The translations under genes and the position numbers were made by a program. A stretch of DNA of 64,000 nt from an uncultured Rhodospirillales bacterium (GTDB taxonomy: Bacteria > Pseudomonadota > Alphaproteobacteria > Acetobacterales > Acetobacteraceae), in assembly GCA_903845065.1 (NCBI GenBank), contig CAIMWH010000063.1:40003-104002 (forward strand), given 5' to 3'. Of this stretch, positions 25,703 to 40,932 are shown in pieces. Every line of letters begins with the position of its first letter. Position 1 is the stretch's first letter. Under the pieces are notes generated by a model, which saw nothing but the letters and a program-made list of their open reading frames with translations, did not search any database and was not told the DNA's origin.

Positions 25703-26033
25703 GTCGGTCCCCCCGAAAGTTCAAGCTTACGCCGTGAATTTTCCTTTGCGCAACCACGCCGCCGCGCCGGCCGCCGCAGGCCCCGCGTCGGCTACTGGAT
25801 ACAACAGATGTTGCGAGTTCGAACATTGCGCGCGCAAAGCAAACTCACCACCGGATGCCATCCCCGCAAGCATCCACCGCACAACAAATCCTAATATAAT
25901 CTTACATACCAAACATTTATTAAATATTATCCGTATCACGCGATATTGATCATTCTATTTGATTCCGATAACAGGAAGTAACGGCGGTTCATTCCCCGCA
26001 GCACCTCGAAACCGCCCACCAGGAGCACATACC

Positions 26034-26636
26034 GTGACAACAGCCAGCAAACTCGGCCGCGCCGCCGCCATCGCCATGCTCGCGCTGTCCGCCGCGTTGC
26101 TGCCAGGCGCCGCCGCAACCGCATCGCCGGTCCCGCCCACCGGTAATCGCCTGGTCAACCCGAGCTTCGAAACCGGCACCCTCTCCGGCTGGACCCGCAC
26201 CACCGGCGGCGCCGGCCTCAGCAACGGCTCGCTGCCCGGCAACATCGCCGCCCACGACGGCATCTGGGAATTCGCCAACGGCGGCGATACCACCGTGCTC
26301 AGCCAGACCATCACCGATATCGCCGGCACCACCTACACTTTCGGCGTCTGGGAGATGGACATCATCGGCGGTGACACCCTCTCGTTGATCTTCGATGGCA
26401 ACACCATCCTCAGCACCGGCGCCCTCACCGACCAGACCGGCACCTGGACCTACTATTCCGCCCAGGTCACCGGCACCGGCTCCGATACCGTCGCCTTCAG
26501 CACCGCCGTGCCGATCGGCGTGATGCTGGTGGACGACACCAATTTCACCGCGGTCGCCACGCCCGAGCCCGCCTCGCTCGCCATCCTGGCCACCGGTCTG
26601 CTCGCCACCCTCACGCTGCGCCGCCGCCGCACCTGA
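26034..26636 (+). CDS. PEP-CTERM sorting-domain protein with beta-sandwich (CBM4_9/DUF642-like) domain
   Basis: GTG 26034 follows AGGAG (26019-26023). The signal peptide ends around AAATASP. The body starts NRLVNPSFETGTLSGW. The C-terminus is PEPASLAILATGLLATLTLRRRRT (PEP motif, TM, Arg cluster). Confidence 0.8.
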   Translation: MTTASKLGRAAAIAMLALSAALLPGAAATASPVPPTGNRLVNPSFETGTLSGWTRTTGGAGLSNGSLPGNIAAHDGIWEFANGGDTTVLSQTITDIAGTTYTFGVWEMDIIGGDTLSLIFDGNTILSTGALTDQTGTWTYYSAQVTGTGSDTVAFSTAVPIGVMLVDDTNFTAVATPEPASLAILATGLLATLTLRRRRT

Positions 26637-30759: not shown

Positions 30760-31740
30760 GTGACCATCGCACCCGCGAACAACTTCAACACCCTGCGCCT
30801 GCTCGCCGCCCTCGCCGTGGTGGCGTCGCACAGCGTGCCGATCACCACCGGCTCGGACCGCGCCGAACTCATCTTCCGCCTCAGCGACGGCCAGGCCACC
30901 GGAGGGAAAATTGCCGTCGGCATCTTCTTCGTCATCAGCGGCTACCTCATCACCGGCAGCTACGCCCGCACCAACAGCCCGCTCGCCTTCACCGCCGCCC
31001 GCGCCCTGCGCCTGCTGCCTGGCCTCGCCGTGGTCCTCGCCGCCATGGCCTTCGCCATCGGCCCCGCCATCTCCAGCCTGCCCGTCCGCGCCTACTTCGC
31101 CGCCCCCGAACCCTGGTGGATGCTCCCGGCCAACCTCTCGCTCCTCGCCAACCCCGACGCGTTACCCGGCGTGTTCCAGACCACCCCGATCGCCGGCCCG
31201 GTCAATGGCTCGCTCTGGACTCTGCAATACGAGGCGCGCTGCTACCTCGCGGTCCTGCTGCTCGGCCTCTGCCGCCTGCTCAACCGATACATCGCGCTGG
31301 CCGCCCTCATCGCCTGCTGCATCGCCCAGAAGCGGTGGATCGGCGGCGAGACCATGGATTTCTATGCCGCATTCGCCGCCGGCGCCGCACTGTATCTCTG
31401 GCGCCCGCCACTCAACCTGTGGCTCGCCGCCGCCTGCGCCGCGCTCTGCCTCGCCGCCCTGTTCCTCGGCGGCTTCCGCATCGCCGCCGCCACCCTCGGC
31501 GCCTACACCATCATCGCCGGCGCCCACGCCCCCCGCCTGCCCGACCTCGCCCGTTACGGGGACCTGTCATACGGCACCTACCTCTGGGCCTTCCCGCTCC
31601 AGCAACTCGCGGTCAGCGCCCTCGGCGGCCCCTGGTGGCTGAACCTCGCCGCCAGCCTGCCACCCATACTCGCGCTGGCCTGGCTCTCCTGGCACCTTGT
31701 CGAGGCCCCAGCCCTTCGCCTCAAGCCACGCCGAACCTAG
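30760..31740 (+). CDS. acyltransferase family 3 (OafA-like) membrane protein
   Basis: C-terminal part of ORF 30292..31740. I chose the GTG at 30760 because the earlier part overlaps the isomerase gene. It opens NNFNTLRLLAALAVVASHS and has about 10 TM segments. Confidence 0.75.
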   Translation: MTIAPANNFNTLRLLAALAVVASHSVPITTGSDRAELIFRLSDGQATGGKIAVGIFFVISGYLITGSYARTNSPLAFTAARALRLLPGLAVVLAAMAFAIGPAISSLPVRAYFAAPEPWWMLPANLSLLANPDALPGVFQTTPIAGPVNGSLWTLQYEARCYLAVLLLGLCRLLNRYIALAALIACCIAQKRWIGGETMDFYAAFAAGAALYLWRPPLNLWLAAACAALCLAALFLGGFRIAAATLGAYTIIAGAHAPRLPDLARYGDLSYGTYLWAFPLQQLAVSALGGPWWLNLAASLPPILALAWLSWHLVEAPALRLKPRRT

Positions 31741-33284
31741 ATATCCGAATCCGGGCTCGCCGCCTTGCCCCGCGCCATGTAGTCGATCAGCGCCTCATCC
31801 ACCCCGGGATCGATCGCCGGCGCCTGATACTCCGCCAGCGTCCGCTTCCAGATCGCATTGGCGCGCACCACCGCATCCTGCGCCCCCTCCGCCTCCCACT
31901 GCTCCACGCTGTTGTTGTCAGCCACCGTGGAGCGGAAAAACGCCGTCTCGAAATTGGCCTGCGTATGCGCGCAGCCCAGGAAATGGCTCCCCGGACCCAC
32001 CTCGCGAATGGCATCCATCGCCTGCCCGTTCTCCGACACATCCACCCCATTGGCGAACGCGTGCCACATCCCGGCCTGGTCGCAATCCATCACGAACTTC
32101 TCGTAGCTCAGCGCCAGCCCGCCTTCGAGCCACCCCGCCGCATGCAGCACGAAGTTCACGCCCCCCATCATGGTCGCGTTCATGGTGTTGGCCGACTCAT
32201 ACGCCGCCTGCGCATCCGGCACCTTGGACGCGCACAACCCGCCGCCCGACCGGAACGGCACCCCCAGCCGCCGGGCCAGCGCCGCCATCACGTACAGCAC
32301 CAGCGAAGGCTCCGGCGTGCCAAACGTCGGCGCGCCCGACTGCATCGAGATCGACGAGGCAAAACTTCCCAAAATCACCGGCGCCCCCGGATTGACCAGC
32401 TGCGCAAACGCCATCCCCGACAACGCCTCGGCCAGCGTCACCGTACACGTCCCCACCACCGTCACCGGAGACATCGCGCCGGCGAGGATGAACGGCGTAG
32501 TCAAATTGGCCTGGTTGTTGCGCGCATAAACCTTCAGCGCCCCCAACATGGTGGCATCCCAGGTTAACGGCGAATTGGCGTTGATGAGGCTGGTCATCAC
32601 CGTCTTCGGCCGCCCGGTATCCGCGTCCATCCAGTCATCGCCAAACAGGATGCGGGACATGTTGACGCTGTCCTCCGCCCGCTCCGGCGCCGTCACCGAG
32701 CCCATGTACGGCTTGTCGCTCCACCGCATATGGGCATACAGCATGTCGTAGTGCCGCTTGTTGACCGGCAGATCCACCGGCTCACAAATCGTCCCGCCGG
32801 AATGGTGCAGGAACGGCGAGGCATAGGTCAGCTTCACGAAATTGCGGAAATCCTCGATCGTCCCGTAGCGCCGCCCACCATCGAGATCGCGCACGAACGG
32901 CGAGCCATAGTTCGGCGCGAACACCGTGTTCGCCCCGCCCATCACCACCGAACGCGCCGGATTGCGGCCATGCTGCACATAGGTTCGCGGCGCGTGCTTA
33001 TGCACCAACCCGCGGCACAGCCCGCGCGGGAAATGCACCCGCTCACCCCGCACATCCGCCCCGGCCCCGCGCCACAATTCCAGCGCCTCCGGATCGCCCT
33101 TGAAGTCGATCCCGACCTCCTCCAGCACCGTCTCGGCGTTGTTTTCGATCAGCGCCAGCCCCTCCTCGCTCAGCGCCTCGTACGGCAGCAGCTTGCGGGT
33201 GATGAAGGGCACGCTGTCGATCGCATGCGCCATGCGGGCAGCCCGCTTGGCACCGCGGCCGGAACGACGGGGAGCATCGGACAT
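31737..33284 (-). CDS. trimethylamine methyltransferase (MttB) superfamily protein, non-pyrrolysine type (quaternary-amine methyltransferase candidate)
   Basis: Uninterrupted 515-aa ORF with no in-frame TAG. The family-typical N-terminus is LSEEGLALIENNAETVLEEVGI, and the body is long and conserved. The start shares one base with the upstream stop (TGATG). Confidence 0.85.
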   Translation of the reverse strand: MSDAPRRSGRGAKRAARMAHAIDSVPFITRKLLPYEALSEEGLALIENNAETVLEEVGIDFKGDPEALELWRGAGADVRGERVHFPRGLCRGLVHKHAPRTYVQHGRNPARSVVMGGANTVFAPNYGSPFVRDLDGGRRYGTIEDFRNFVKLTYASPFLHHSGGTICEPVDLPVNKRHYDMLYAHMRWSDKPYMGSVTAPERAEDSVNMSRILFGDDWMDADTGRPKTVMTSLINANSPLTWDATMLGALKVYARNNQANLTTPFILAGAMSPVTVVGTCTVTLAEALSGMAFAQLVNPGAPVILGSFASSISMQSGAPTFGTPEPSLVLYVMAALARRLGVPFRSGGGLCASKVPDAQAAYESANTMNATMMGGVNFVLHAAGWLEGGLALSYEKFVMDCDQAGMWHAFANGVDVSENGQAMDAIREVGPGSHFLGCAHTQANFETAFFRSTVADNNSVEQWEAEGAQDAVVRANAIWKRTLAEYQAPAIDPGVDEALIDYMARGKAASPDSDI

Positions 33285-35746
33285 CAGGCGGTCTCCACTG
33301 GGGGGGACTCATGAAGCAAAGCGAAATCGCCGCTCGCCATCTGGCGCAGCACGGCGGCAATGGCGGCAAACGAACGCGCGGCTACCCGGCTTTCGTGCCG
33401 CGCCCGCAGATAGCCATGCACCAGGCCAGGCTCATTGCGAAACAACGTCGGCACGCCCGAGGCCGCCAGCAGCGCCGCGTAATCCTCGCCATCCTGCCGC
33501 AGCGGATCGATCCCCGCCGACACGATGGCGGCCGGCGCCACGCCCGACACATCGCGCGCGCATAATGGCGCAAACTCCGGATCATCCTTCGGAATCCGGT
33601 GCTCGCCCCCGGCATACAGCGCCCGATAGCCGCCCGAATGCCGCACCGGCAGCAGCGGCGCATCGAGATTGCGCTCGCCGTTGCGGAACGGATCGCCGCC
33701 GAGGCCCGGATAAATCATCACCTGCCCCACCGGCTGCGCATCGCCCAACCGCTTGAGCCGCAAGCACAACGCGGCGGTCAAATTCCCCCCCGCGCTATCC
33801 CCGCCCACAATCACCCGCCGCCCGCGCGCCAGCAGATACCGATACGCCGCCTCGGTATCATCGAGCGCCGCCGGGTAGGCATGCTCGGGCGACAGCCGGT
33901 AATCGAGCGAAACCACCTCGATCCCCGCATCGCGCGCCAGTTCCGCACACACGTCGTCATGCGATTCCAACCCGCCCACCACATACCCGCCGCCATGTAG
34001 ATACAGCAGCGTCACATCGCTCTTCACGCCCTGCATCGCATAATGCCGCACCGGCATGCCGCGCTCCGGCCCACGCGCCGCGATACTGAAATCGGTGGCG
34101 ACAATCCCCTCCGGCCGCGGCGCGCGAAACGCATCGCACATCCGGTTGTAGATCGCCCGGTTCTCCGCCGGCCCCGCCGCATTGGTGGTGTCCGGATAGA
34201 ACGACTCCGTCCGCGCGATGAACGCCGTCACCTCCGCATCCAGCATCCGCGCTAGCACCGGGCTCGCCACCCCGCGCGGCTTGGCCACGCCGATCGCCCG
34301 CCCCGCCGCCTCCGGCCGCGCCAGTTTCGCCTGCGCATCGCGGATTGCCCGGAACCTGGCGGCAATCTCGGCCGGCGCCGCGCAAGCCCGCCCGGCCGCC
34401 ATGTCCACATGCAGCAGCATATGCTCGCCCGAGGCCAGCAGCGCATCCGTCTTGCCGTGGCGAATTTCGTGGAACAACCGCACCCGCTTGTCGTCCGCAT
34501 CCAGCACCAGCGTGGTGGTGTAGTACGGATCGAGCCCAGGGATTTCCTTGCGATGCACGATATGGGTCTCGGCGGTAAAGTAGCTGTGCCCCGCCGCCAC
34601 GTAATCGAGGTCCACCCCCACCAGCTTCAGCAGCGCATCCGTCGCATTGGTGCACACCTGGAGGTAGCGGCTCTCCGTCATGTGCTTGTTGTAGTCCACC
34701 CAATCCGGCCCCACGATGCCATGGTGCAGCCGCAACGGCTGCGACAAGTCATCCGGCAGCGCCGCCTTGGCATGCCCGCTTGCATACAGCCGCGCCTCAT
34801 ACGCCGCCAGCACCGCCCCGGCGCCATAATCCTGCGTCTTCAGCGCCTGCATCACCGCCACCAGGCAGTCATCCCGCTTGCGCTCCAGCGCGCGATGATC
34901 GAGCCCGCCGGCCTGCGCGTCCGACTGCGCGGTCACCTCTTCGATCAGCGCCTCGGTCAACTCCGGCACATCCATCAACTTGGTCCACGGCAACTGCAAC
35001 GCCGGGCCGAACTGCGCCATGAAATGCCGCATCCCCGCCTCGCCGCCTGCCAGCCGGTAGATCAGGAACGTCCCCATGAAGGACCAGCGCAGCCCCGCGC
35101 CATAACGAATAGCGTCATCGATCTCCTCGGTCGTCGCCACCCCATCATTGACCAGCCACAACGCCTCGCGCCACAGCGCCTCCAGCAGCCGATCGGCGAT
35201 GAACCCGTCGATCTCCTTGCGCACATGCAGCGGCTTCATGCCGATGGACGCATAGAATTCCCGTGCCCGCGCAATCGTCTCGGGCGCCGTCTGCCCCCCC
35301 CCGCACACCTCCACCAGCGGCAGCAGATACACCGGATTGAATGGATGCCCCACGGTGAACCGGCCCGGATACCGCATCCCCGCCTGCAACTCGGTCGGCA
35401 ACAGGCCGGAGGTGGAGGAGCATATCAACGCATCCGGCCGCGCATGCGCGTCGATCTCGTTGAGAATCCGCTGCTTCAAATCCACCCGCTCGGGGGCGGA
35501 CTCCTGGATGAACTCCGCCTCCCGCACCGCCTCGGCGATACTCCCGGCAAACCGCAGCGAACCGCGATTCCCCGTCGGCGCCAGCGTCAGCCGCGCATAG
35601 GCCCGCTCGGCATTGGCGATCACCTCGCCCAGCGCCCGCTCGGCCTCCGGCGCCGGATCGAACACCACCACGTCATGCCCGTTGATCACCAGCCGCGCCG
35701 CCCAGCCGCCGCCGATCACCCCGCCGCCGATAACCGCGCAGATCAT
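33284..35746 (-). CDS. lcdH: tri-domain fusion: L-carnitine 3-dehydrogenase + hotdog-type thioesterase + alpha/beta-hydrolase fold-3 esterase
   Basis: 820 aa. aa 1-~320: GGGVIGGGWA Rossmann motif, GHPFNPVYLLPLVEV, DRLLEALWREALWLV and AGGEAGMRHFMAQFGP, as in carnitine dehydrogenases. aa ~335-478: hotdog-like (VDYNKHMTESRYLQ...). aa ~501-805: starts MLDAEVTAFIA and has HGGG (584-587), GDSAGG (649-654), DPLRQD and HGY. Confidence 0.85.
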   Translation of the reverse strand: MICAVIGGGVIGGGWAARLVINGHDVVVFDPAPEAERALGEVIANAERAYARLTLAPTGNRGSLRFAGSIAEAVREAEFIQESAPERVDLKQRILNEIDAHARPDALICSSTSGLLPTELQAGMRYPGRFTVGHPFNPVYLLPLVEVCGGGQTAPETIARAREFYASIGMKPLHVRKEIDGFIADRLLEALWREALWLVNDGVATTEEIDDAIRYGAGLRWSFMGTFLIYRLAGGEAGMRHFMAQFGPALQLPWTKLMDVPELTEALIEEVTAQSDAQAGGLDHRALERKRDDCLVAVMQALKTQDYGAGAVLAAYEARLYASGHAKAALPDDLSQPLRLHHGIVGPDWVDYNKHMTESRYLQVCTNATDALLKLVGVDLDYVAAGHSYFTAETHIVHRKEIPGLDPYYTTTLVLDADDKRVRLFHEIRHGKTDALLASGEHMLLHVDMAAGRACAAPAEIAARFRAIRDAQAKLARPEAAGRAIGVAKPRGVASPVLARMLDAEVTAFIARTESFYPDTTNAAGPAENRAIYNRMCDAFRAPRPEGIVATDFSIAARGPERGMPVRHYAMQGVKSDVTLLYLHGGGYVVGGLESHDDVCAELARDAGIEVVSLDYRLSPEHAYPAALDDTEAAYRYLLARGRRVIVGGDSAGGNLTAALCLRLKRLGDAQPVGQVMIYPGLGGDPFRNGERNLDAPLLPVRHSGGYRALYAGGEHRIPKDDPEFAPLCARDVSGVAPAAIVSAGIDPLRQDGEDYAALLAASGVPTLFRNEPGLVHGYLRARHESRVAARSFAAIAAVLRQMASGDFALLHESPPVETA

Positions 35747-36636
35747 GCCGCACCGCGCAGCTTGAGCTTGCGCCGCACATCCGCCGGGCTCATCACCCGC
35801 ACATTCATCCCCTCCAGGATGGTCACCGCCCGCTCCACCAGCGTCCCGTTGGTCGCCTTCTGCCCGCGCGACAGCCAGATATTGTCCTCCAGCCCCACCC
35901 GCACATTGCCCCCCGCCAGCGCCGCCATCGCCACATACGGCAACTGGTTGCGCCCGATCGAGAACGCCGAGAACACCGCCCCCGGCGGCAGGTTATGCAC
36001 CAGCGACAGCAGCGTCAGCGGATCATCCGGCGCCCCGTATGGAATCCCCATGCACAACTGGATCATCACGGGATCATCGATCAACCCCTCTGACACCAGT
36101 TGCTTCGCCAGCACCAGGTGCCCGGCATCGAACACCTCGATTTCCGGACGAACCCCCAGCGCCTGCACCCGCCTCGCCATCGCCCGCAGCATCCCGGGCG
36201 TGTTGGTCATCACATAGTCGCCCTCGGCGAAATTCATCGACCCGCAATCGAGCGTGCAGATCTCCGGCAGCAGGTCGGTGACATGCACCACCCGCTCCTC
36301 GGCACCCGCCATGTCAGTGAACCGCATATCGAGCGGCAACGGCGTGTCCGCCCCGCCCAGCACCAGGTCCCCGCCCATCCCGGCGGTCAGGTTGATCACC
36401 ACATCGGTATCGGATGCCCGTATCCGCTCCACCACCTCGCGATACAGCGCCGGATCGCGGGATGCCGCACCCGTCTCGGGATTGCGCACATGAATATGCG
36501 CCACCGCCGCCCCCGCCTTGGCCGCCTCGATCGCCGAAGCCGCGATCTGCGCCGGCGTGATCGGCACATGCTCCGATTTGTCGGTGGTAGCGCCGGCGCC
36601 GGTGATGGCGGCAGTGATGAAAACGTCCCAGTTCAT
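35743..36636 (-). CDS. BKACE-family (3-keto-5-aminohexanoate cleavage enzyme-like, DUF849) protein; dehydrocarnitine cleavage candidate
   Basis: ATG 36636 (MNWDVFITAAITGAG...). Motifs: HIHVRNPETG and VGLEDN. Its stop overlaps the lcdH start as ATGA. Confidence 0.85.
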   Translation of the reverse strand: MNWDVFITAAITGAGATTDKSEHVPITPAQIAASAIEAAKAGAAVAHIHVRNPETGAASRDPALYREVVERIRASDTDVVINLTAGMGGDLVLGGADTPLPLDMRFTDMAGAEERVVHVTDLLPEICTLDCGSMNFAEGDYVMTNTPGMLRAMARRVQALGVRPEIEVFDAGHLVLAKQLVSEGLIDDPVMIQLCMGIPYGAPDDPLTLLSLVHNLPPGAVFSAFSIGRNQLPYVAMAALAGGNVRVGLEDNIWLSRGQKATNGTLVERAVTILEGMNVRVMSPADVRRKLKLRGAA

Positions 36637-36649
36637 GATCTTGTCCGTT

Positions 36650-39157
36650 TCAAGCGCGCAAACGCGCGTTGTCAGCATCGAAAGGCGAATCCGCGATCAC
36701 CGTCGCCCGGTGCGGCACACCCAGTATCTCCACCGTCAGTTCCGAACCCACCTCCCCCAGGTCCGGCCGCACGAACGCCAGCGCGAGGGATTTCCCCAAC
36801 CGCCAGCCATACCCGCCCGACGTCGTCCGCCCCACCAGCGCCCCCCCGGCATAGATCGGCTCGGACCCGCGCGCATCGGCATCCGTCACCCCATGCACCT
36901 CCAGCGTCACATACCGGTTGGCAAACCCGCGCTCGCGCCAGGCCACCAGCCCATCGCGCCCGACAAAATCCCCCTTGTCGAGCGCCACGAACCGATCAAG
37001 CCCCGATTCCAGCGCCGCATACTCGATCGACAACTCCCGCCCCACCAACCGGTAGGACTTCTCCAGCCGCAGCGAATCCATCGCCCGGATGCCAAACGGC
37101 TTCAGCTCCAGGTCCGCCCCCGCCGCCATCAGCCGGTCAAAAATGTAGTTCTGAACCTCGATCGGATGATGCAACTCCCAGCCAAGCTCGCCCACATAGT
37201 TCACCCGCAACGCCCGCGTCGTCGCCGCGCCCACATTGATGGTCCGGCCGGACAGCCACGGGAACGCCTTGTTGGACAAATCCGCATCCGTCACCCGCGC
37301 CAGCAAATCCCGCGCCCGCGGCCCGGCGATCACCAGCACCCCATGCTGCGTCGTCACCTTGCGCAGCGTCACGCTGCCATCGGCCGGCACCGCCTTGCTG
37401 AAATAGTCCCAGTCATGGCTCTCCAGCGCCCCGGCCGACACGATGTAGAACCGGTCCGCCGCCTCGCGATAGACCGTGAACTCCGTCCGCACCCCGCCCT
37501 GCGGCGTCAGGTGATAGCACAGCCCGATCCGCCCCACCTTCTGCGGCAGCCGCCCCGAAACGAACCCATCGAGCCATGCCGCCGCCCCCGGCCCCGACAA
37601 CTCGAACTTGGCGAACGCGCTCATATCGAGCAGCCCGACCTTCTCATGCACATGCCGGCACTCGCGCCCGACATGCTCGAAGTAGTTCGAGCGCCGGAAA
37701 CTCCACTTCTCCACAATCCGCCCATCGATCGGGGGCGCATGGTTCTCATTGAGCAGCACATCGGTCTTGCCCAAGGCCGCCGCATCGAGCGCATAGCCCG
37801 CCGGGGCGAACCAGTTCGGCCGCTCCCAGCCAAACACCGAGCCGAACACCGCCCCCAGCGCCTTCATCCGCGAATAGCACGGCGTCTGCCGCATCGGCCG
37901 CGCCGCAGTGCGCTCCTCATCGGGATAATGCACGGTGAAGACCTTGGCATAGGCCTCCTCGTTCTTCTCCTTGAGATACCCCCGCGTGGCATACGGCCCG
38001 AACCGCCGCGGATCGACCCCCATCATATCGACGGTCGGCTCCCCATCGACGATCCACTCCGCCAACTGCCACCCGGCCCCGCCGGCCGCGGTAATCCCGA
38101 AGCTGTGCCCCTCGTTGAGCCAGAAATTCCGCAACCCCGGCGCCGGCCCCACGATGGGCGAGCCATCCGGCGTATAGGCGATGGCGCCGTTATAGACCTG
38201 CTTCACCCCCACCTCGCCGAACGCCGGCACCCGGGCAATCGCCGTCTCGATATAAGGCGCCAGCCGCTCCAGATCCTCCTGGAACAACTCATACTCGGAG
38301 CCGTCATCCGGCCCGTCCACATAACAAGCCGGCGCCCCGATTTCATACGGCCCCAGCAGCAGCCCGCCGTTCTCCTCGCGCATGTACCACGACGAGTCCG
38401 ACTCCCGCAGCACCCCCATCTCCGGCAGCCCCTGCCGCCGCCGCTCCACAATCGCCGGATGCGGCTCCGTCACGATATACTGGTGCTCCACCGGCACCAC
38501 CGGGATTTCGATCCCCACCATCGCCCCGGTCCGCCGCGCGAAACTCCCGGTCGCCGAGACGATGTGCTCGCACACGATATCGCCCTTGTCGGTCCGCACC
38601 TGCCACTCGCTGGAGGGCAACCGGGAAATCCCCGTCACCGTGGTATACCGATTGATCTCCGCCCCCATCGCCCGCGCCCCGCGCGCCAGCGCCTGCGTCA
38701 GATCGGCCGGCTGGATATACCCGTCCTCGGGATGCTGAATGGCACCGAGCAACCCCTCGAAATTGCACAGCGGCCAAATGTCCTTGACCTCGCTTGGCGT
38801 CAGGAACCGCACATCCACCCCGATGGTCTTCGCCACCCCGGCGTAATAGCGATACTCGTCCATCCGGTCCTGCGTGCGCGCCAGGCGAATATTGCTCACC
38901 TGCCGCAGCCCGACGTTCTGCCCGGTCTCCGCCTCCAGCCGCTTGTAGAGCGCCACCGAATACTTGTGGATCTGCCCCACGGAGTAGCTGAGGTTGAACA
39001 ACGGCAGCAGCCCCGCCGCATGCCAGGTGGAGCCCGAGGTCAATTCCTTGCGCTCGATCAGCACGCTGTCGGTCCAGCCCTTCTTGGCCAGATGATACAA
39101 GGTGCTGACGCCGACAGCGCCGCCACCGATGACCACCGCGCGGGCATGGGTTCTCAT
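36650..39157 (-). CDS. dimethylglycine/sarcosine dehydrogenase family protein (FAD DAO domain fused to GcvT-type folate-binding domain)
   Basis: 835 aa. GAGGAG lies upstream of ATG 39157. The N-terminus has VVIGGGAVGVSTLYHL and STWHAAGL. The C-terminal aminomethyltransferase-like region has YVGELGWELH. Confidence 0.9.
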   Translation of the reverse strand: MRTHARAVVIGGGAVGVSTLYHLAKKGWTDSVLIERKELTSGSTWHAAGLLPLFNLSYSVGQIHKYSVALYKRLEAETGQNVGLRQVSNIRLARTQDRMDEYRYYAGVAKTIGVDVRFLTPSEVKDIWPLCNFEGLLGAIQHPEDGYIQPADLTQALARGARAMGAEINRYTTVTGISRLPSSEWQVRTDKGDIVCEHIVSATGSFARRTGAMVGIEIPVVPVEHQYIVTEPHPAIVERRRQGLPEMGVLRESDSSWYMREENGGLLLGPYEIGAPACYVDGPDDGSEYELFQEDLERLAPYIETAIARVPAFGEVGVKQVYNGAIAYTPDGSPIVGPAPGLRNFWLNEGHSFGITAAGGAGWQLAEWIVDGEPTVDMMGVDPRRFGPYATRGYLKEKNEEAYAKVFTVHYPDEERTAARPMRQTPCYSRMKALGAVFGSVFGWERPNWFAPAGYALDAAALGKTDVLLNENHAPPIDGRIVEKWSFRRSNYFEHVGRECRHVHEKVGLLDMSAFAKFELSGPGAAAWLDGFVSGRLPQKVGRIGLCYHLTPQGGVRTEFTVYREAADRFYIVSAGALESHDWDYFSKAVPADGSVTLRKVTTQHGVLVIAGPRARDLLARVTDADLSNKAFPWLSGRTINVGAATTRALRVNYVGELGWELHHPIEVQNYIFDRLMAAGADLELKPFGIRAMDSLRLEKSYRLVGRELSIEYAALESGLDRFVALDKGDFVGRDGLVAWRERGFANRYVTLEVHGVTDADARGSEPIYAGGALVGRTTSGGYGWRLGKSLALAFVRPDLGEVGSELTVEILGVPHRATVIADSPFDADNARLRA

Positions 39158-39191: not shown

Positions 39192-40850
39192 TCATCGTTG
39201 GGAAGTCTGCCAGTCCGCCGCAGCGTAGAATGGCTGGTTGGACGGCGCCATCGGGGCGCGCCCGAGAATATGGTCCGAAGCCTTCTCTCCGATCATGATG
39301 CTGGGCGCATTGAGGTTCCCGGTCGTCACCTGCGGCATGATGGAGGAATCGACCACCCGCAGCCCATCCACCCCGATCACCCGCGTCTCGGCATCAACCA
39401 CCGCCATCGGATCATCCGCCCGCCCCATCCGGCAGGTGCCGCACGGATGATAGGCGCTCTCCACCTTGGCGCGGATGAACGCATCGATCGCCTCGTCCGT
39501 CGTCACATCGGCGCCAGGCTGGATTTCCCGCCCGCGATACGGATCGAACGCCGCCTGGCCGAAAATCTCCCGCGTCAGCCGCACCGCCGCCCGCATCTCC
39601 ACCCAATCGTCGGGATGGCTCATGTAGTTGTAGCGGATCACCGGCTTGGCCAGCGGATCGGGCCCCGCCAGCCGCACATGGCCCCGGCTTTTCGAGCGCA
39701 TCGGCCCGGCATGGGCCTGGAACCCGTGCCGATCCGCCAGCGCCGAGCCGTCATAGGCAATCGCCAGCGGCAGGAAATGATACTGGATATCGGGCCACGG
39801 AACCCCGGCCCGGCTGCGAATGAACCCGCAGGATTCGAAGTGGTTGGTCGCCCCCAACCCGTCCCGCCGCAACAGCCAGCGCGCCCCGATCATCGCCTTC
39901 GCCAGCGGACTCATGGAGGAAAACAGGGTGATCGGCTGGGTGCACTCCACCTGGAAATAGAACTCCAGGTGATCCTGCAAATTCTCCCCCACCCCGGGCC
40001 GGTTCACCAGAATAGGGATCTCATTGGCCCGCAACTCCGCCGCCGGCCCGATGCCCGAAAGCTTCAGCAATTGCGGCGAATTGATCGGCCCCCCGGCCAA
40101 AATCACCTCCCGCGCCGCCGTCGCCACCTGCTCCGTCCCACCGCGCAGGTACCGCACCCCGGTCGCCCGCCGGCCGACGAACTCGATCCCGGTCGCCATC
40201 GCCCCGGTGCGGATTTCCAGGTTCTTGCGCCGGCGGATGGGATGCAGATACGCCACCGCCGCCGAACACCGCTCCCCCTTTCGCACCGTCATATCCATCC
40301 GCCCGAACCCCTCCTGGCGGAACCCGTTGACGTCCTCCGTCACCCCGTACCCGGCCTGCCGCCCGGCCTCGATCCAGGCGCGATACAGCGGATTGGCGAG
40401 CGGCCCATACGCCGTGGACAGCGGCCCCTCGTCGCCCCGATACGCATCCCCCCCCTCGGCGCGGCTTTCGGCCCGGCGGAAATACGGCAGCACATCGGCC
40501 CAGCCCCAGCCCTGCGCCCCTTGCTCCCGCCACCCCTCGTAATCCATCGGATTGCCGCGGATATAAACCAGCCCATTGATCGAGGAGGACCCGCCCAGCA
40601 CCTTGCCGCGCGGCGTATGCATCCGCCGCCCGTTCAGGTTGGGCTCGGGCTCCGTCTCGTAGAACCAGTTGTAGCGCTTCATATTCATCGGGATGGACAA
40701 CGCCGAGGGCATCCGAATGAAGATCGACCCATCCCCGCCGCCCGCCTCCAGCAGCAGCACGCGGTTGCGGCTATCCGCGCTGAGCCGGTTGGCCAGCACC
40801 GAGCCGGCCGAGCCGGCGCCCACGATCACATAGTCGAAGCTTTCTGCCAT
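39192..40850 (-). CDS. betA: choline dehydrogenase (GMC oxidoreductase)
   Basis: ATG 40850 ([23 protein letters not shown]...). It is collinear with E. coli BetA by eye: [59 protein letters not shown]. Confidence 0.9.
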
Positions 40851-40932
40851 CGATCCCGCGCATTTCCACCCCGCGGGCGTTAACATCATCCGCCCCCGGC
40901 ATCAAATCGCCGGACCAAAGCCGAGGAAACCC

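Follow-up and report, generated by a model that had tools for sequence, protein, structure and literature searches.

A rare fusion of carnitine dehydrogenase and hotdog thioesterase with a family IV esterase, a candidate acylcarnitine hydrolase

The closest described counterpart of the gene considered here is the operon caiX-cdhCAB-hocS of Pseudomonas aeruginosa (PMC5806209), within which cdhA encodes L-carnitine dehydrogenase, cdhB betainyl-CoA thioesterase and hocS an acylcarnitine hydrolase (bioRxiv 10.1101/2021.12.09.472016). HocS (PA5384) is a cytoplasmic enzyme proven to hydrolyse short-chain O-acyl-L-carnitines (PMC13631058; PMC5806209; bioRxiv 10.1101/2021.12.09.472016). It is 42% identical to the acyl-L-carnitine hydrolase ACH of Acinetobacter baumannii (HMPREF0010_01348; hyd), which, like HocS, falls under EC 3.1.1.28 and has likewise been characterised as an enzyme (PMC13631058), and this identity together with its operon position suggests that HocS belongs to the Abhydrolase_3 family. 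The hyd product itself matches Abhydrolase_3 with 221 bits. It is a stand-alone monomer of 324 aa whose gene lies inside a carnitine catabolic operon (LysR-mdh-BCCT-hyd-cntA-msadh-cntB); this operon, however, yields trimethylamine and malate by way of the CntAB monooxygenase instead of using carnitine dehydrogenase (CDH) and the CdhC-type dehydrocarnitine cleavage enzyme BKACE. Two-domain proteins consisting of CDH and a thioesterase (CDH-TE; NF005716, PRK07531), encoded adjacent to BKACE, are represented by thousands of homologues at 60-70% identity. A cluster of the Burkholderia cepacia complex (L014) harbours BKACE, CDH, TE and an Abhydrolase_3 esterase as four separate genes, the last with orthologues 74-98% identical across many named Burkholderia species. 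Finally, HylD1 of Paracoccus kondratievae (PDB 8YQJ), a stand-alone family IV esterase with no known link to carnitine, has been reported to hydrolyse short-chain phthalate esters, namely dimethyl and diethyl phthalate (PMC10537300).

In the window, i.e. the whole 64-kb stretch of DNA which was analysed, which derives from a soil bacterium, the equivalents of cdhA, cdhB and hocS appear to be joined in one polypeptide, while P. aeruginosa distributes the four functions BKACE, CDH, thioesterase and esterase, in this same order, over four separate proteins. The gene and its neighbourhood comprise the following features:

39192..40889, minus strand: choline dehydrogenase BetA, with which the same-strand block begins (TIGR01810, 826.8 bits; cutoff 732)
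36650..39157, minus strand: dimethylglycine-dehydrogenase-type protein (DAO + FAO_M + GCV_T; Pfam)
35743..36678, minus strand: BKACE (PF05853, 1.7e-98); its stop overlaps the start of the fusion gene (ATGA)
33284..35746, minus strand: complete ORF of 820 aa (CDH, hotdog thioesterase, linker, family IV esterase), the predicted equivalent of a cdhA-cdhB-hocS fusion
34832..35737, minus strand: L-carnitine dehydrogenase domain, residues 4-305 (3HCDH_N + 3HCDH; Pfam, NCBIfam NF005471)
34352..34714, minus strand: thioesterase domain of the hotdog type (4HBT_2), residues 345-465, corresponding to the betainyl-CoA thioesterase portion of the CDH-TE model (Pfam, NF005716)
34256..34333, minus strand: inter-domain linker, residues 472-497 (AlphaFold pLDDT, junction mapping)
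33287..34255, minus strand: alpha/beta-hydrolase domain of family IV (hormone-sensitive-lipase type), residues 498-820 (PF07859, Foldseek)
34244..34246, minus strand: codon of Met501, the putative relic of an ancestral esterase start codon
33986..33997, minus strand: HGGG oxyanion-hole motif, residues 584-587
33788..33802, minus strand: GDSAG nucleophile elbow, residues 649-653, with Ser651 at 33794-33796
33506..33508, minus strand: catalytic Asp747 (in DPLRQD, 747-752)
33416..33418, minus strand: catalytic His777 (in HGY, 777-779)
31737..33284, minus strand: MttB-family methyltransferase without pyrrolysine (PF06253, 8.8e-228); its start overlaps the stop of the fusion gene (TGATG)

The ORF starts with ATG, contains zero internal stops according to the ORF listing and displays a GC content by codon position of 0.71/0.48/0.84, as is typical of the genuine genes in the window (67% GC). 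Pfam places 3HCDH_N at residues 4-178 (1.5e-40), 3HCDH at 181-249, 4HBT_2 at 345-465 (9.5e-26) and Abhydrolase_3 at 580-780 (1.6e-56). Together with NCBIfam it thus bears out the three-unit fusion with a complete esterase which an earlier note had read from this DNA, and whose domain coordinates prove correct within a few codons. Residues 3-487 match positions 7-493 of the 495 positions of NF005716 (“carnitine 3-dehydrogenase”), the equivalog model of CDH plus thioesterase, with 714.6 bits (curated cutoff 592), and hence correspond to the two-domain proteins from end to end; NF005471 (L-carnitine dehydrogenase) scores 434 bits (cutoff 414). The match to NF005716 predicts that this part of the protein oxidises L-carnitine with NAD and hydrolyses betainyl-CoA. 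The esterase domain covers positions 1-209 of the 210 positions of PF07859 with 191.8 bits (cutoff 25); among the NCBIfam models its region 505-798 is matched by generic hormone-sensitive-lipase models only, every score being below cutoff. The AlphaFold model consists of three confident folds (mean pLDDT 89.9) with disorder confined to the linker, the sole low-confidence stretch (pLDDT about 59, below 50 at residues 487-494). The esterase domain, for which pLDDT mostly exceeds 90, adopts an alpha/beta-hydrolase fold with an N-terminal helical cap. HylD1 is its closest solved structure (48-50% identity, TM 0.93 by Foldseek) and shares the same cap, beginning “SDPQVLGFIARTE”; many further hormone-sensitive-lipase-type esterases reach TM 0.84-0.90.

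A search for the three-domain architecture revealed it to be rare: among 1.84 billion representatives only one 50%-identity cluster spans all three domains, so that the third domain is indeed the unusual part of the protein, as had been suspected. The fusion is represented by 21 full-length homologues of 64-85% identity from independent assemblies, including intact ORFs in the loci L001, L002 and L095. The motifs HGGG, GDSAGG (649-654), DPLRQD and HGY listed in the earlier note are all present and, with Ser651, Asp747 and His777, invariant throughout the 21 sequences. Conservation of the esterase and CDH domains is similar (82% versus 88% in L001, 72% versus 72% in L002). In every fused locus BKACE is located directly upstream of the fusion gene; L002 lacks betA and contains a divergent CdhR-type regulator (DJ-1_PfpI + AraC), such a regulator being a further likeness of loci related to the window to the P. 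aeruginosa system. The architecture arranges a known pathway in a new and rare way but does not amount to a new kind of system.

As the full-length homologues stem from independent assemblies and share a linker of conserved length and invariant catalytic residues, the 820-aa three-domain ORF is confirmed to be real. That a missed stop or frameshift created it, or that the esterase is made separately from the ATG at 34246-34244, is highly improbable. This ATG, which encodes Met501, does mark the position at which stand-alone esterases begin (P0135 and P0140 start with “MLDPEV” there, crystal structure 8YQJ two residues earlier), and the methionine is kept in 19 of the 21 fused proteins. Yet the reading frame, which had been proposed for inspection between the domains, is unbroken here and in over 20 sequence clusters that derive from independent assemblies, different sequencing centres and long-read contigs, and the conserved linker length likewise speaks against an artefact. 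In none of four fused loci is the internal ATG preceded at 5-12 nt by a purine-rich Shine-Dalgarno-like motif, which argues against the internal start considered in the earlier note.

The two-domain CDH-TE proteins terminate at positions equivalent to window residues 488-493, whereas the fusion protein runs on for a further 330 residues. The flexible linker of about 25 residues consists of the usual C-terminal tail of the CDH-TE proteins, to which about 10 residues (PRGVASPVLAR) are added. Unfused relatives are ordered BKACE, CDH-TE, esterase, the CDH-TE and esterase genes being 3 nt apart or overlapping by 4 nt; in Burkholderia sp. Ac-20344 the order is BKACE, CDH, TE, esterase. Since the unfused clusters show the same order, the fusion arose by end-to-end joining of adjacent genes. 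The loss of a gene boundary implied by the former suggestion of a “recent fusion by loss of a stop codon” is thereby retained. Its recency is not, because identities within the fused clade go down to 64% while the linker has stayed conserved, which points to an old event.

What the esterase domain acts upon is suggested by its context. Because the gene order matches cdhC-cdhA-cdhB-hocS and because ACH is an Abhydrolase_3 protein 36% identical to the domain, we consider it moderately probable that the latter is a HocS-like acylcarnitine hydrolase which provides the dehydrogenase of the same polypeptide with L-carnitine. This assignment, already put forward as a hypothesis in the earlier note, would have strong precedent in HocS, an esterase tied to carnitine dehydrogenation, and in ACH, whose HGGG, GDSAG, Asp and His align with the window domain. 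The identity of 36% to ACH (BLASTP, 263 residues, E 6e-45) is, however, ordinary for family IV and too low for a transfer of chain-length specificity; it is exceeded by that to HylD1 (50%) and to esterases from non-carnitine contexts (57-62%). The esterase of the Burkholderia cluster, whose four genes agree in function and order, is also only 36% identical to the domain. In a neighbour-joining tree the fused domains and the carnitine-cluster esterases form one clade. Six of its seven stand-alone members whose context was examined reside in carnitine clusters (P0124, P0129, P0134, P0140, P0154 and L009), the seventh, P0121, being an apparent fission product; P0133, P0137 and P0139, which stem from a different genomic context, fall outside. 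Arg708 is the only plausible clade-specific pocket residue found.

If the domain is an acylcarnitine hydrolase, the gene would correspond to three successive genes of the operon for aerobic carnitine breakdown, fused head to tail and translationally coupled to the upstream cdhC (BKACE). The C-terminal esterase (Ser651/Asp747/His777, HGGG) would convert cytoplasmic O-acyl-L-carnitines to fatty acid and L-carnitine, which the N-terminal domain would oxidise to 3-dehydrocarnitine. The separate BKACE would then transform 3-dehydrocarnitine and acetyl-CoA to acetoacetate and betainyl-CoA, from which the middle hotdog domain would release glycine betaine for demethylation by the flanking MttB-type and DMGDH-type enzymes. 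A kinetic benefit of the fusion, e.g. by co-stoichiometry or proximity, is speculative. Of 80 CDH loci sampled, 72 have BKACE close to the CDH gene, mostly immediately upstream of it, and only two have an adjacent esterase, indicating that the esterase is an accessory and not a core step of the pathway.

Alternatively, the domain might be a broad or otherwise specialised carboxylesterase acting on choline, other betaine or xenobiotic esters, which was fused merely as a neighbouring gene and has no dedicated role in carnitine supply. We regard this as rather unlikely. It would be in line with the phthalate-ester hydrolysis by HylD1 (PMC10537300), with the many subfamily members at 57-62% identity in unrelated contexts (SBP_bac_5/PAPS_reduct), with choline dehydrogenase betA as the first gene of the window operon and with the fact that no curated NCBIfam model claims the domain. 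The association of such esterases with BKACE/CDH recurs, however, in at least four different gene arrangements and in lineages far apart (the fused clade and its sister clade, Burkholderia and, with a CntAB-type pathway, Acinetobacter). Moreover, BKACE is the only invariant neighbour, betA being missing from L002, and purifying selection acts equally on the esterase and CDH domains.

Hydrolysis of L-carnitinyl-CoA constitutes the last step of the aerobic CoA-dependent route from gamma-butyrobetaine to carnitine. The alpha/beta-hydrolase domain might accordingly be a CoA-thioesterase acting on L-carnitinyl-CoA, or a second betainyl-CoA hydrolase, and L-carnitine or glycine betaine would still arise on the one polypeptide; we judge this main rival reading unlikely. 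About 15 metagenome loci show the order BKACE, CDH (no hotdog), acyl-CoA dehydrogenase (ACAD), ADP-forming CoA ligase, enoyl-CoA hydratase and Abhydrolase_3, the last being 41-47% identical to the window domain and, as the sole hydrolase, standing in place of the missing hotdog domain. In addition, P0124 and P0129, stand-alone proteins inside the fused clade, adjoin CDH-TE-ACAD-CoA ligase genes, and roughly 35 of 80 genome loci have the ACAD-ligase-hydratase trio after CDH-TE. The HK4-type gamma-butyrobetaine route has been described (PMC2131755). Against such a role, the window protein already possesses a hotdog thioesterase, and tblastn gave zero matches for acyl-CoA dehydrogenase, CoA ligase and enoyl-CoA hydratase in the 64-kb window, L001 and L002, which therefore contain no local genes for carnitinyl-CoA supply; the Burkholderia locus lacks the three genes as well. 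Co-location with genes of the gamma-butyrobetaine route is seen only in more distant relatives (L102, L107, L115, L119, L121, L155). Furthermore, both characterised operon-linked relatives, HocS and ACH, are O-ester hydrolases (PMC13631058), and family IV enzymes are classically carboxylesterases. A broader proposal, which we deem quite unlikely, is that the carnitine-cluster alpha/beta-hydrolases serve not only as O-acylcarnitine esterases but also as L-carnitinyl-CoA (or betainyl-CoA) thioesterases in the aerobic breakdown of gamma-butyrobetaine and carnitine, where they and the hotdog domain could substitute for each other. If this were true, the tri-domain protein would be a “carnitine hub” passing the product of one active site on to the next.

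Conceptually the fusion contributes little, since neither the pathway nor any of the three activities is new. Under the preferred reading as an acylcarnitine hydrolase it would act as a Rosetta stone which links to carnitine catabolism a large set of proteins that carry no annotation beyond “alpha/beta hydrolase” or “acetyl esterase” and occur in Alphaproteobacteria-like MAGs from soil, in Burkholderia and elsewhere. The acylcarnitine-hydrolase link, so far demonstrated in two pathogens, would thus be extended to environmental bacteria, and the single polypeptide provides a direct object for assaying acylcarnitine-dependent NADH production. Carnitine-producing enzymes seem to have been repeatedly recruited beside, or fused to, carnitine dehydrogenase, as the clusters in which an alpha/beta hydrolase replaces the hotdog thioesterase illustrate. 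Two further fusions belong to the same picture: P0506 independently combines an esterase of the same subfamily with a carnitine/choline O-acyltransferase, which also favours the reading as an acylcarnitine hydrolase, and another protein joins CDH to a butyrobetaine hydroxylase.

The earlier note had described 33284-35746 as a reading frame composed of three units, an L-carnitine dehydrogenase, a hotdog thioesterase and an alpha/beta-hydrolase, and this description is confirmed by the ORF listing of the window, by Pfam and by NCBIfam. The interval 33284..35746 on the reverse strand constitutes one unbroken ORF which starts with ATG and encodes 820 amino acids. Its GC content at codon positions 1/2/3 (0.71/0.48/0.84) fits genuine genes in this window of about 67% GC. 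The four Pfam domains (E-values of 7e-15 to 1.6e-56) and the esterase motifs, all of which are present as the note had listed them, are located within the fusion as follows:

Residues 4-178: 3HCDH_N (Pfam)
Residues 181-249: 3HCDH (Pfam)
Residues 345-465: 4HBT_2 (Pfam)
Residues 580-780: Abhydrolase_3 (Pfam)
Residues 584-587: HGGG motif of the esterase domain
Residues 649-654: GDSAGG motif of the esterase domain, including Ser651
Residues 747-752: DPLRQD motif of the esterase domain, including Asp747
Residues 777-779: HGY motif of the esterase domain, including His777

Residues 3-487 match the two-domain NCBIfam equivalog NF005716 ("carnitine 3-dehydrogenase") from end to end (714.6 bits versus a cutoff of 592). 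Residues 505-798 are recognised by generic hormone-sensitive lipase models only, each below cutoff. NCBIfam holds no curated acylcarnitine hydrolase model, and all three carnitine-linked esterases yield these same generic models below cutoff. Within NF005716 the dehydrogenase-thioesterase part is nothing out of the ordinary, and the fold of the esterase part (residues 498-820) is likewise ordinary for family IV. The closest solved relative of the latter is HylD1, a family IV esterase of Paracoccus kondratievae (crystal structure 8YQJ; 48-50% identity, TM 0.93) which has been characterised on dimethyl and diethyl phthalate (PMC10537300). In the AlphaFold model, calculated from a 104-sequence alignment (mean pLDDT 89.9, pTM 0.58), residues 481-497 form the sole poorly predicted part, with pLDDT below 50 at positions 487-494. 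The model suggests three well-folded units with a flexible tether between them.

Among 5.8 billion protein clusters searched, 21 full-length proteins (802-840 aa) contain the same three domains according to Pfam and are 64-85% identical to the query. All of them originate from metagenomes or MAGs, and the most precise name any of them bears is "carnitine 3-dehydrogenase". The homologues align end to end, the length of the linker is kept, and HGGG, Ser651, Asp747 and His777 are invariant. Fused homologues occur on many independent contigs (NCBI, ENA, JGI, Logan); in the comparison loci L001, L002 and L095 the fused ORF was checked directly and is intact. Since the unbroken ORF recurs across many independent assemblies, an artefact or frameshift as its source is excluded. 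Esterase and dehydrogenase parts are conserved to a similar degree: identity to the window protein amounts to 82% for the esterase versus 88% for the dehydrogenase part in L001 and to 72% versus 72% in L002.

The note had regarded the additional esterase domain as the unusual part, which is borne out by HMMER, run exhaustively against 1.84 billion representatives at 50% identity. Here, P0014 (814 aa) is the sole representative spanning all three domains, while the remaining strong matches are, without exception, dehydrogenase(-thioesterase) proteins or stand-alone esterases. Among the matches listed for dehydrogenase loci sampled from GTDB species genomes (n = 80), none is fused and two possess an adjacent esterase. 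Taken together, these counts argue that the tri-domain architecture is limited to one narrow clade. A literature search for this architecture found no description of it. The nearest named relatives of the individual domains belong to Acetobacteraceae, Acidiphilium and Hyphomicrobiales.

Two-domain dehydrogenase-thioesterase proteins stop at positions equivalent to residues 488-493 of the window protein ("...LPRPEQAGRSVGRR") and stand-alone esterases of the subfamily start at residues 491-501; the junction is thus end to end, with about ten extra residues. The internal ATG at 34246-34244, correctly located in the note, encodes Met501. Stand-alone esterases do start at this point, as had been claimed: the first residues of P0135 and P0140 are "MLDPEV", exactly at the Met501 position, and the 8YQJ structure begins there with "SDPQVLGFIARTE". 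Unfused arrangements are found as well. The contig of P0154 carries separate genes for BKACE (the CdhC-type dehydrocarnitine cleavage enzyme), dehydrogenase-thioesterase and esterase, the latter after a 3-nt gap, and locus L009 has this order, too; in an Acetobacteraceae MAG the dehydrogenase-thioesterase and esterase genes overlap by 4 nt. Burkholderia sp. Ac-20344 possesses four separate genes (BKACE, dehydrogenase, thioesterase, esterase), and its operon esterase has orthologues of 74-98% identity in named Burkholderia species. Loci L087 and L092 have the esterase behind a divergent CdhR-like regulator, beside BKACE and dehydrogenase-thioesterase. A neighbour-joining tree built from 143 esterase sequences unites all fused domains in one clade; its sister group includes dehydrogenase-adjacent stand-alone esterases, while P0133, P0137 and P0139 from another context (SBP_bac_5/PAPS_reduct) are placed outside. 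The tree-based prediction that P0140 and P0124 reside in carnitine clusters was confirmed on inspection of their contexts. The fusion goes back to a single, fairly old event in which the boundary between neighbouring genes was lost. Of the "recent fusion by loss of a stop codon" suggested in the note, the lost boundary between adjacent genes is upheld by the unfused pairs of the same order, whereas the recent date is ruled out by the 64-85% identity span of the fused clade and its conserved linker. The note's other suggestion, that the esterase is made separately from an internal translation start at Met501, is unsupported, as no Shine-Dalgarno-like motif precedes this codon in the four fused loci examined.

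The stand-alone esterase P0121 (348 aa; L003:1066-2112, the same in L004 and L005) shares 78% identity with the window domain. It retains the fusion linker ("AGRRIAGKTPRGVASPPIARMVDAEM") and is flanked by carbonic anhydrase and metallophosphatase genes, with all carnitine genes far away; it seems to derive from the fused domain by a later fission or relocation. The carnitine cluster L091:1565-6921 looks decayed or rearranged: dehydrogenase (281 aa) and thioesterase (201 aa) are split into two ORFs, the esterase is preceded by a 658-aa ORF of opposite orientation without domain match, and transposase genes (DDE_5, rve) occur in the vicinity.

In the window, the fusion belongs to a same-strand block of betA (TIGR01810, 827 bits), a DMGDH-type gene, BKACE, the fusion itself and an MttB-family gene, with stop/start overlaps on both sides of the fusion (ATGA and TGATG). 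An identical five-gene block is present in L001, and BKACE is the only neighbour common to all fused loci. In Pseudomonas aeruginosa, the operon caiX-cdhCAB-hocS combines carnitine catabolism with HocS (PA5384), which hydrolyses short-chain acylcarnitines in the cytoplasm (PMC5806209; PMC13631058). From the homologous genes of P. putida, cdhC is known to encode BKACE, cdhA the dehydrogenase and cdhB the thioesterase (bioRxiv 10.1101/2021.12.09.472016). The window therefore shows the same gene order, with the equivalents of cdhA, cdhB and hocS in a single frame directly after cdhC, and the esterase domain is a putative orthologue of HocS. The carnitine operon of Acinetobacter baumannii (L093) comprises genes for LysR, D-malate dehydrogenase, a BCCT transporter, an alpha/beta hydrolase, cntA, msadh and cntB. 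This hydrolase, the acyl-L-carnitine hydrolase ACH, belongs to Abhydrolase_3 (221 bits), as does the window domain, to which it is 36% identical (E 6e-45), a value unremarkable within family IV; identity to the Burkholderia operon esterase is 35%. The idea that HocS might be a GDSL/SGNH lipase was set aside, since the A. baumannii enzyme, with which HocS shares 42% identity, belongs to Abhydrolase_3. L093 (CP035931.1 696792-711418) and H17, H21 and H22 belong to A. baumannii records of 1-4 Mb in a plasmid collection, which are evidently chromosomes or fragments thereof; the operon is recoverable because a chromosome was filed among plasmids.

The N-terminal part of a bacterial protein, P0506 (955 aa, L094:257-3124), is an Abhydrolase_3 esterase which belongs to the same subfamily, is 45% identical to the window domain and has intact GDSVG, DPLRDD and HGC motifs. 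It is fused to a choline/carnitine O-acyltransferase (PF00755, 530 bits) of full length, which bears the EHSPADG motif. The gene lies among ordinary housekeeping genes, and no description of this architecture was found. P0506 gives a further, independent hint of an acylcarnitine hydrolase role of the window domain. Operon precedent, the A. baumannii Abhydrolase_3 hydrolase and P0506, taken together, make a HocS-like function the best-supported prediction: the esterase domain would hydrolyse O-acyl-L-carnitine, and the L-carnitine set free would pass to the dehydrogenase domain of the same protein.

A serious possibility is that the esterases of this subfamily act as carnitinyl- or betainyl-CoA thioesterases. 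When metagenomes were scanned with the esterase alignment, the matches listed included a third cluster type (L102:1-6930, also L107, L111, L115, L119, L121 and L155) of BKACE, a dehydrogenase without hotdog domain, acyl-CoA dehydrogenase (ACAD), ADP-forming CoA ligase, enoyl-CoA hydratase and Abhydrolase_3, in which the hydrolase appears to replace the absent hotdog thioesterase; such an activity therefore has to be considered. The ACAD-ligase-hydratase trio, which among the matches listed follows dehydrogenase-thioesterase in about 35 of 80 genome loci, matches the CoA-dependent conversion of gamma-butyrobetaine to carnitine. This route is that of Lonza HK4-type strains (PMC2131755). The window protein, however, already has a hotdog domain, and ACAD, ligase and hydratase genes are absent from the 64-kb window, L001, L002 and the Burkholderia locus. 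Broad or choline-ester specificity is likewise possible, with betA heading the window operon, yet the constant partner is BKACE, not betA. Common to the two leading readings, acylcarnitine hydrolase and CoA thioesterase, and robust, is a hydrolase which releases carnitine or betaine and is tethered to a carnitine-consuming enzyme.

Specificity-determining residues were discarded as evidence: only five alignment columns are clade-specific, with Arg708 the sole plausible specificity residue, which is too weak. Arg708 (33623-33625, in GGYRALYAGG) is shared by the whole carnitine-linked esterase clade (100%) and by the esterases of the Burkholderia operon; its equivalent occurs in about 10% of other subfamily members and is Leu in A. 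baumannii ACH. Speculatively, this arginine could bind the carboxylate of the substrate.

The full-length MttB-superfamily gene at 31737-33284 (reverse strand) has no in-frame stop and is translationally coupled to the fusion via TGATG. Together with betA and the DMGDH-type gene it suggests that betaine is demethylated in a corrinoid-type step, in an operon for quaternary amines which appears to be aerobic. The longest BKACE ORF (311 aa) shares 29 nt (36650-36678) with the end of the DMGDH-type gene; since the orthologues in L001 and L002 comprise 298 aa, the true start probably lies about 13 codons downstream. A small protein encoded at 25959-26636 (forward strand) bears a C-terminal PEP-CTERM sorting motif, which points to a Gram-negative host with exosortase. 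Rfam, promoter and terminator scans gave nothing informative.

While the carnitine pathway and the genetic link of the esterase to carnitine catabolism are already known, the tri-domain architecture is new, as is the evidence that an anonymous alpha/beta-hydrolase clade is part of BKACE-type carnitine clusters in environmental bacteria. The fusion leads to a functional prediction that can be tested, and it poses the question of a thioesterase role. In P0391 (701 aa) and P0437 (612 aa, partial), L-carnitine dehydrogenase is followed by C-terminal GBBH-like_N and TauD domains, i.e. gamma-butyrobetaine hydroxylase. Here, the consecutive steps from butyrobetaine via carnitine to dehydrocarnitine reside on one chain, the second case in which carnitine dehydrogenase is joined to an enzyme that produces carnitine.
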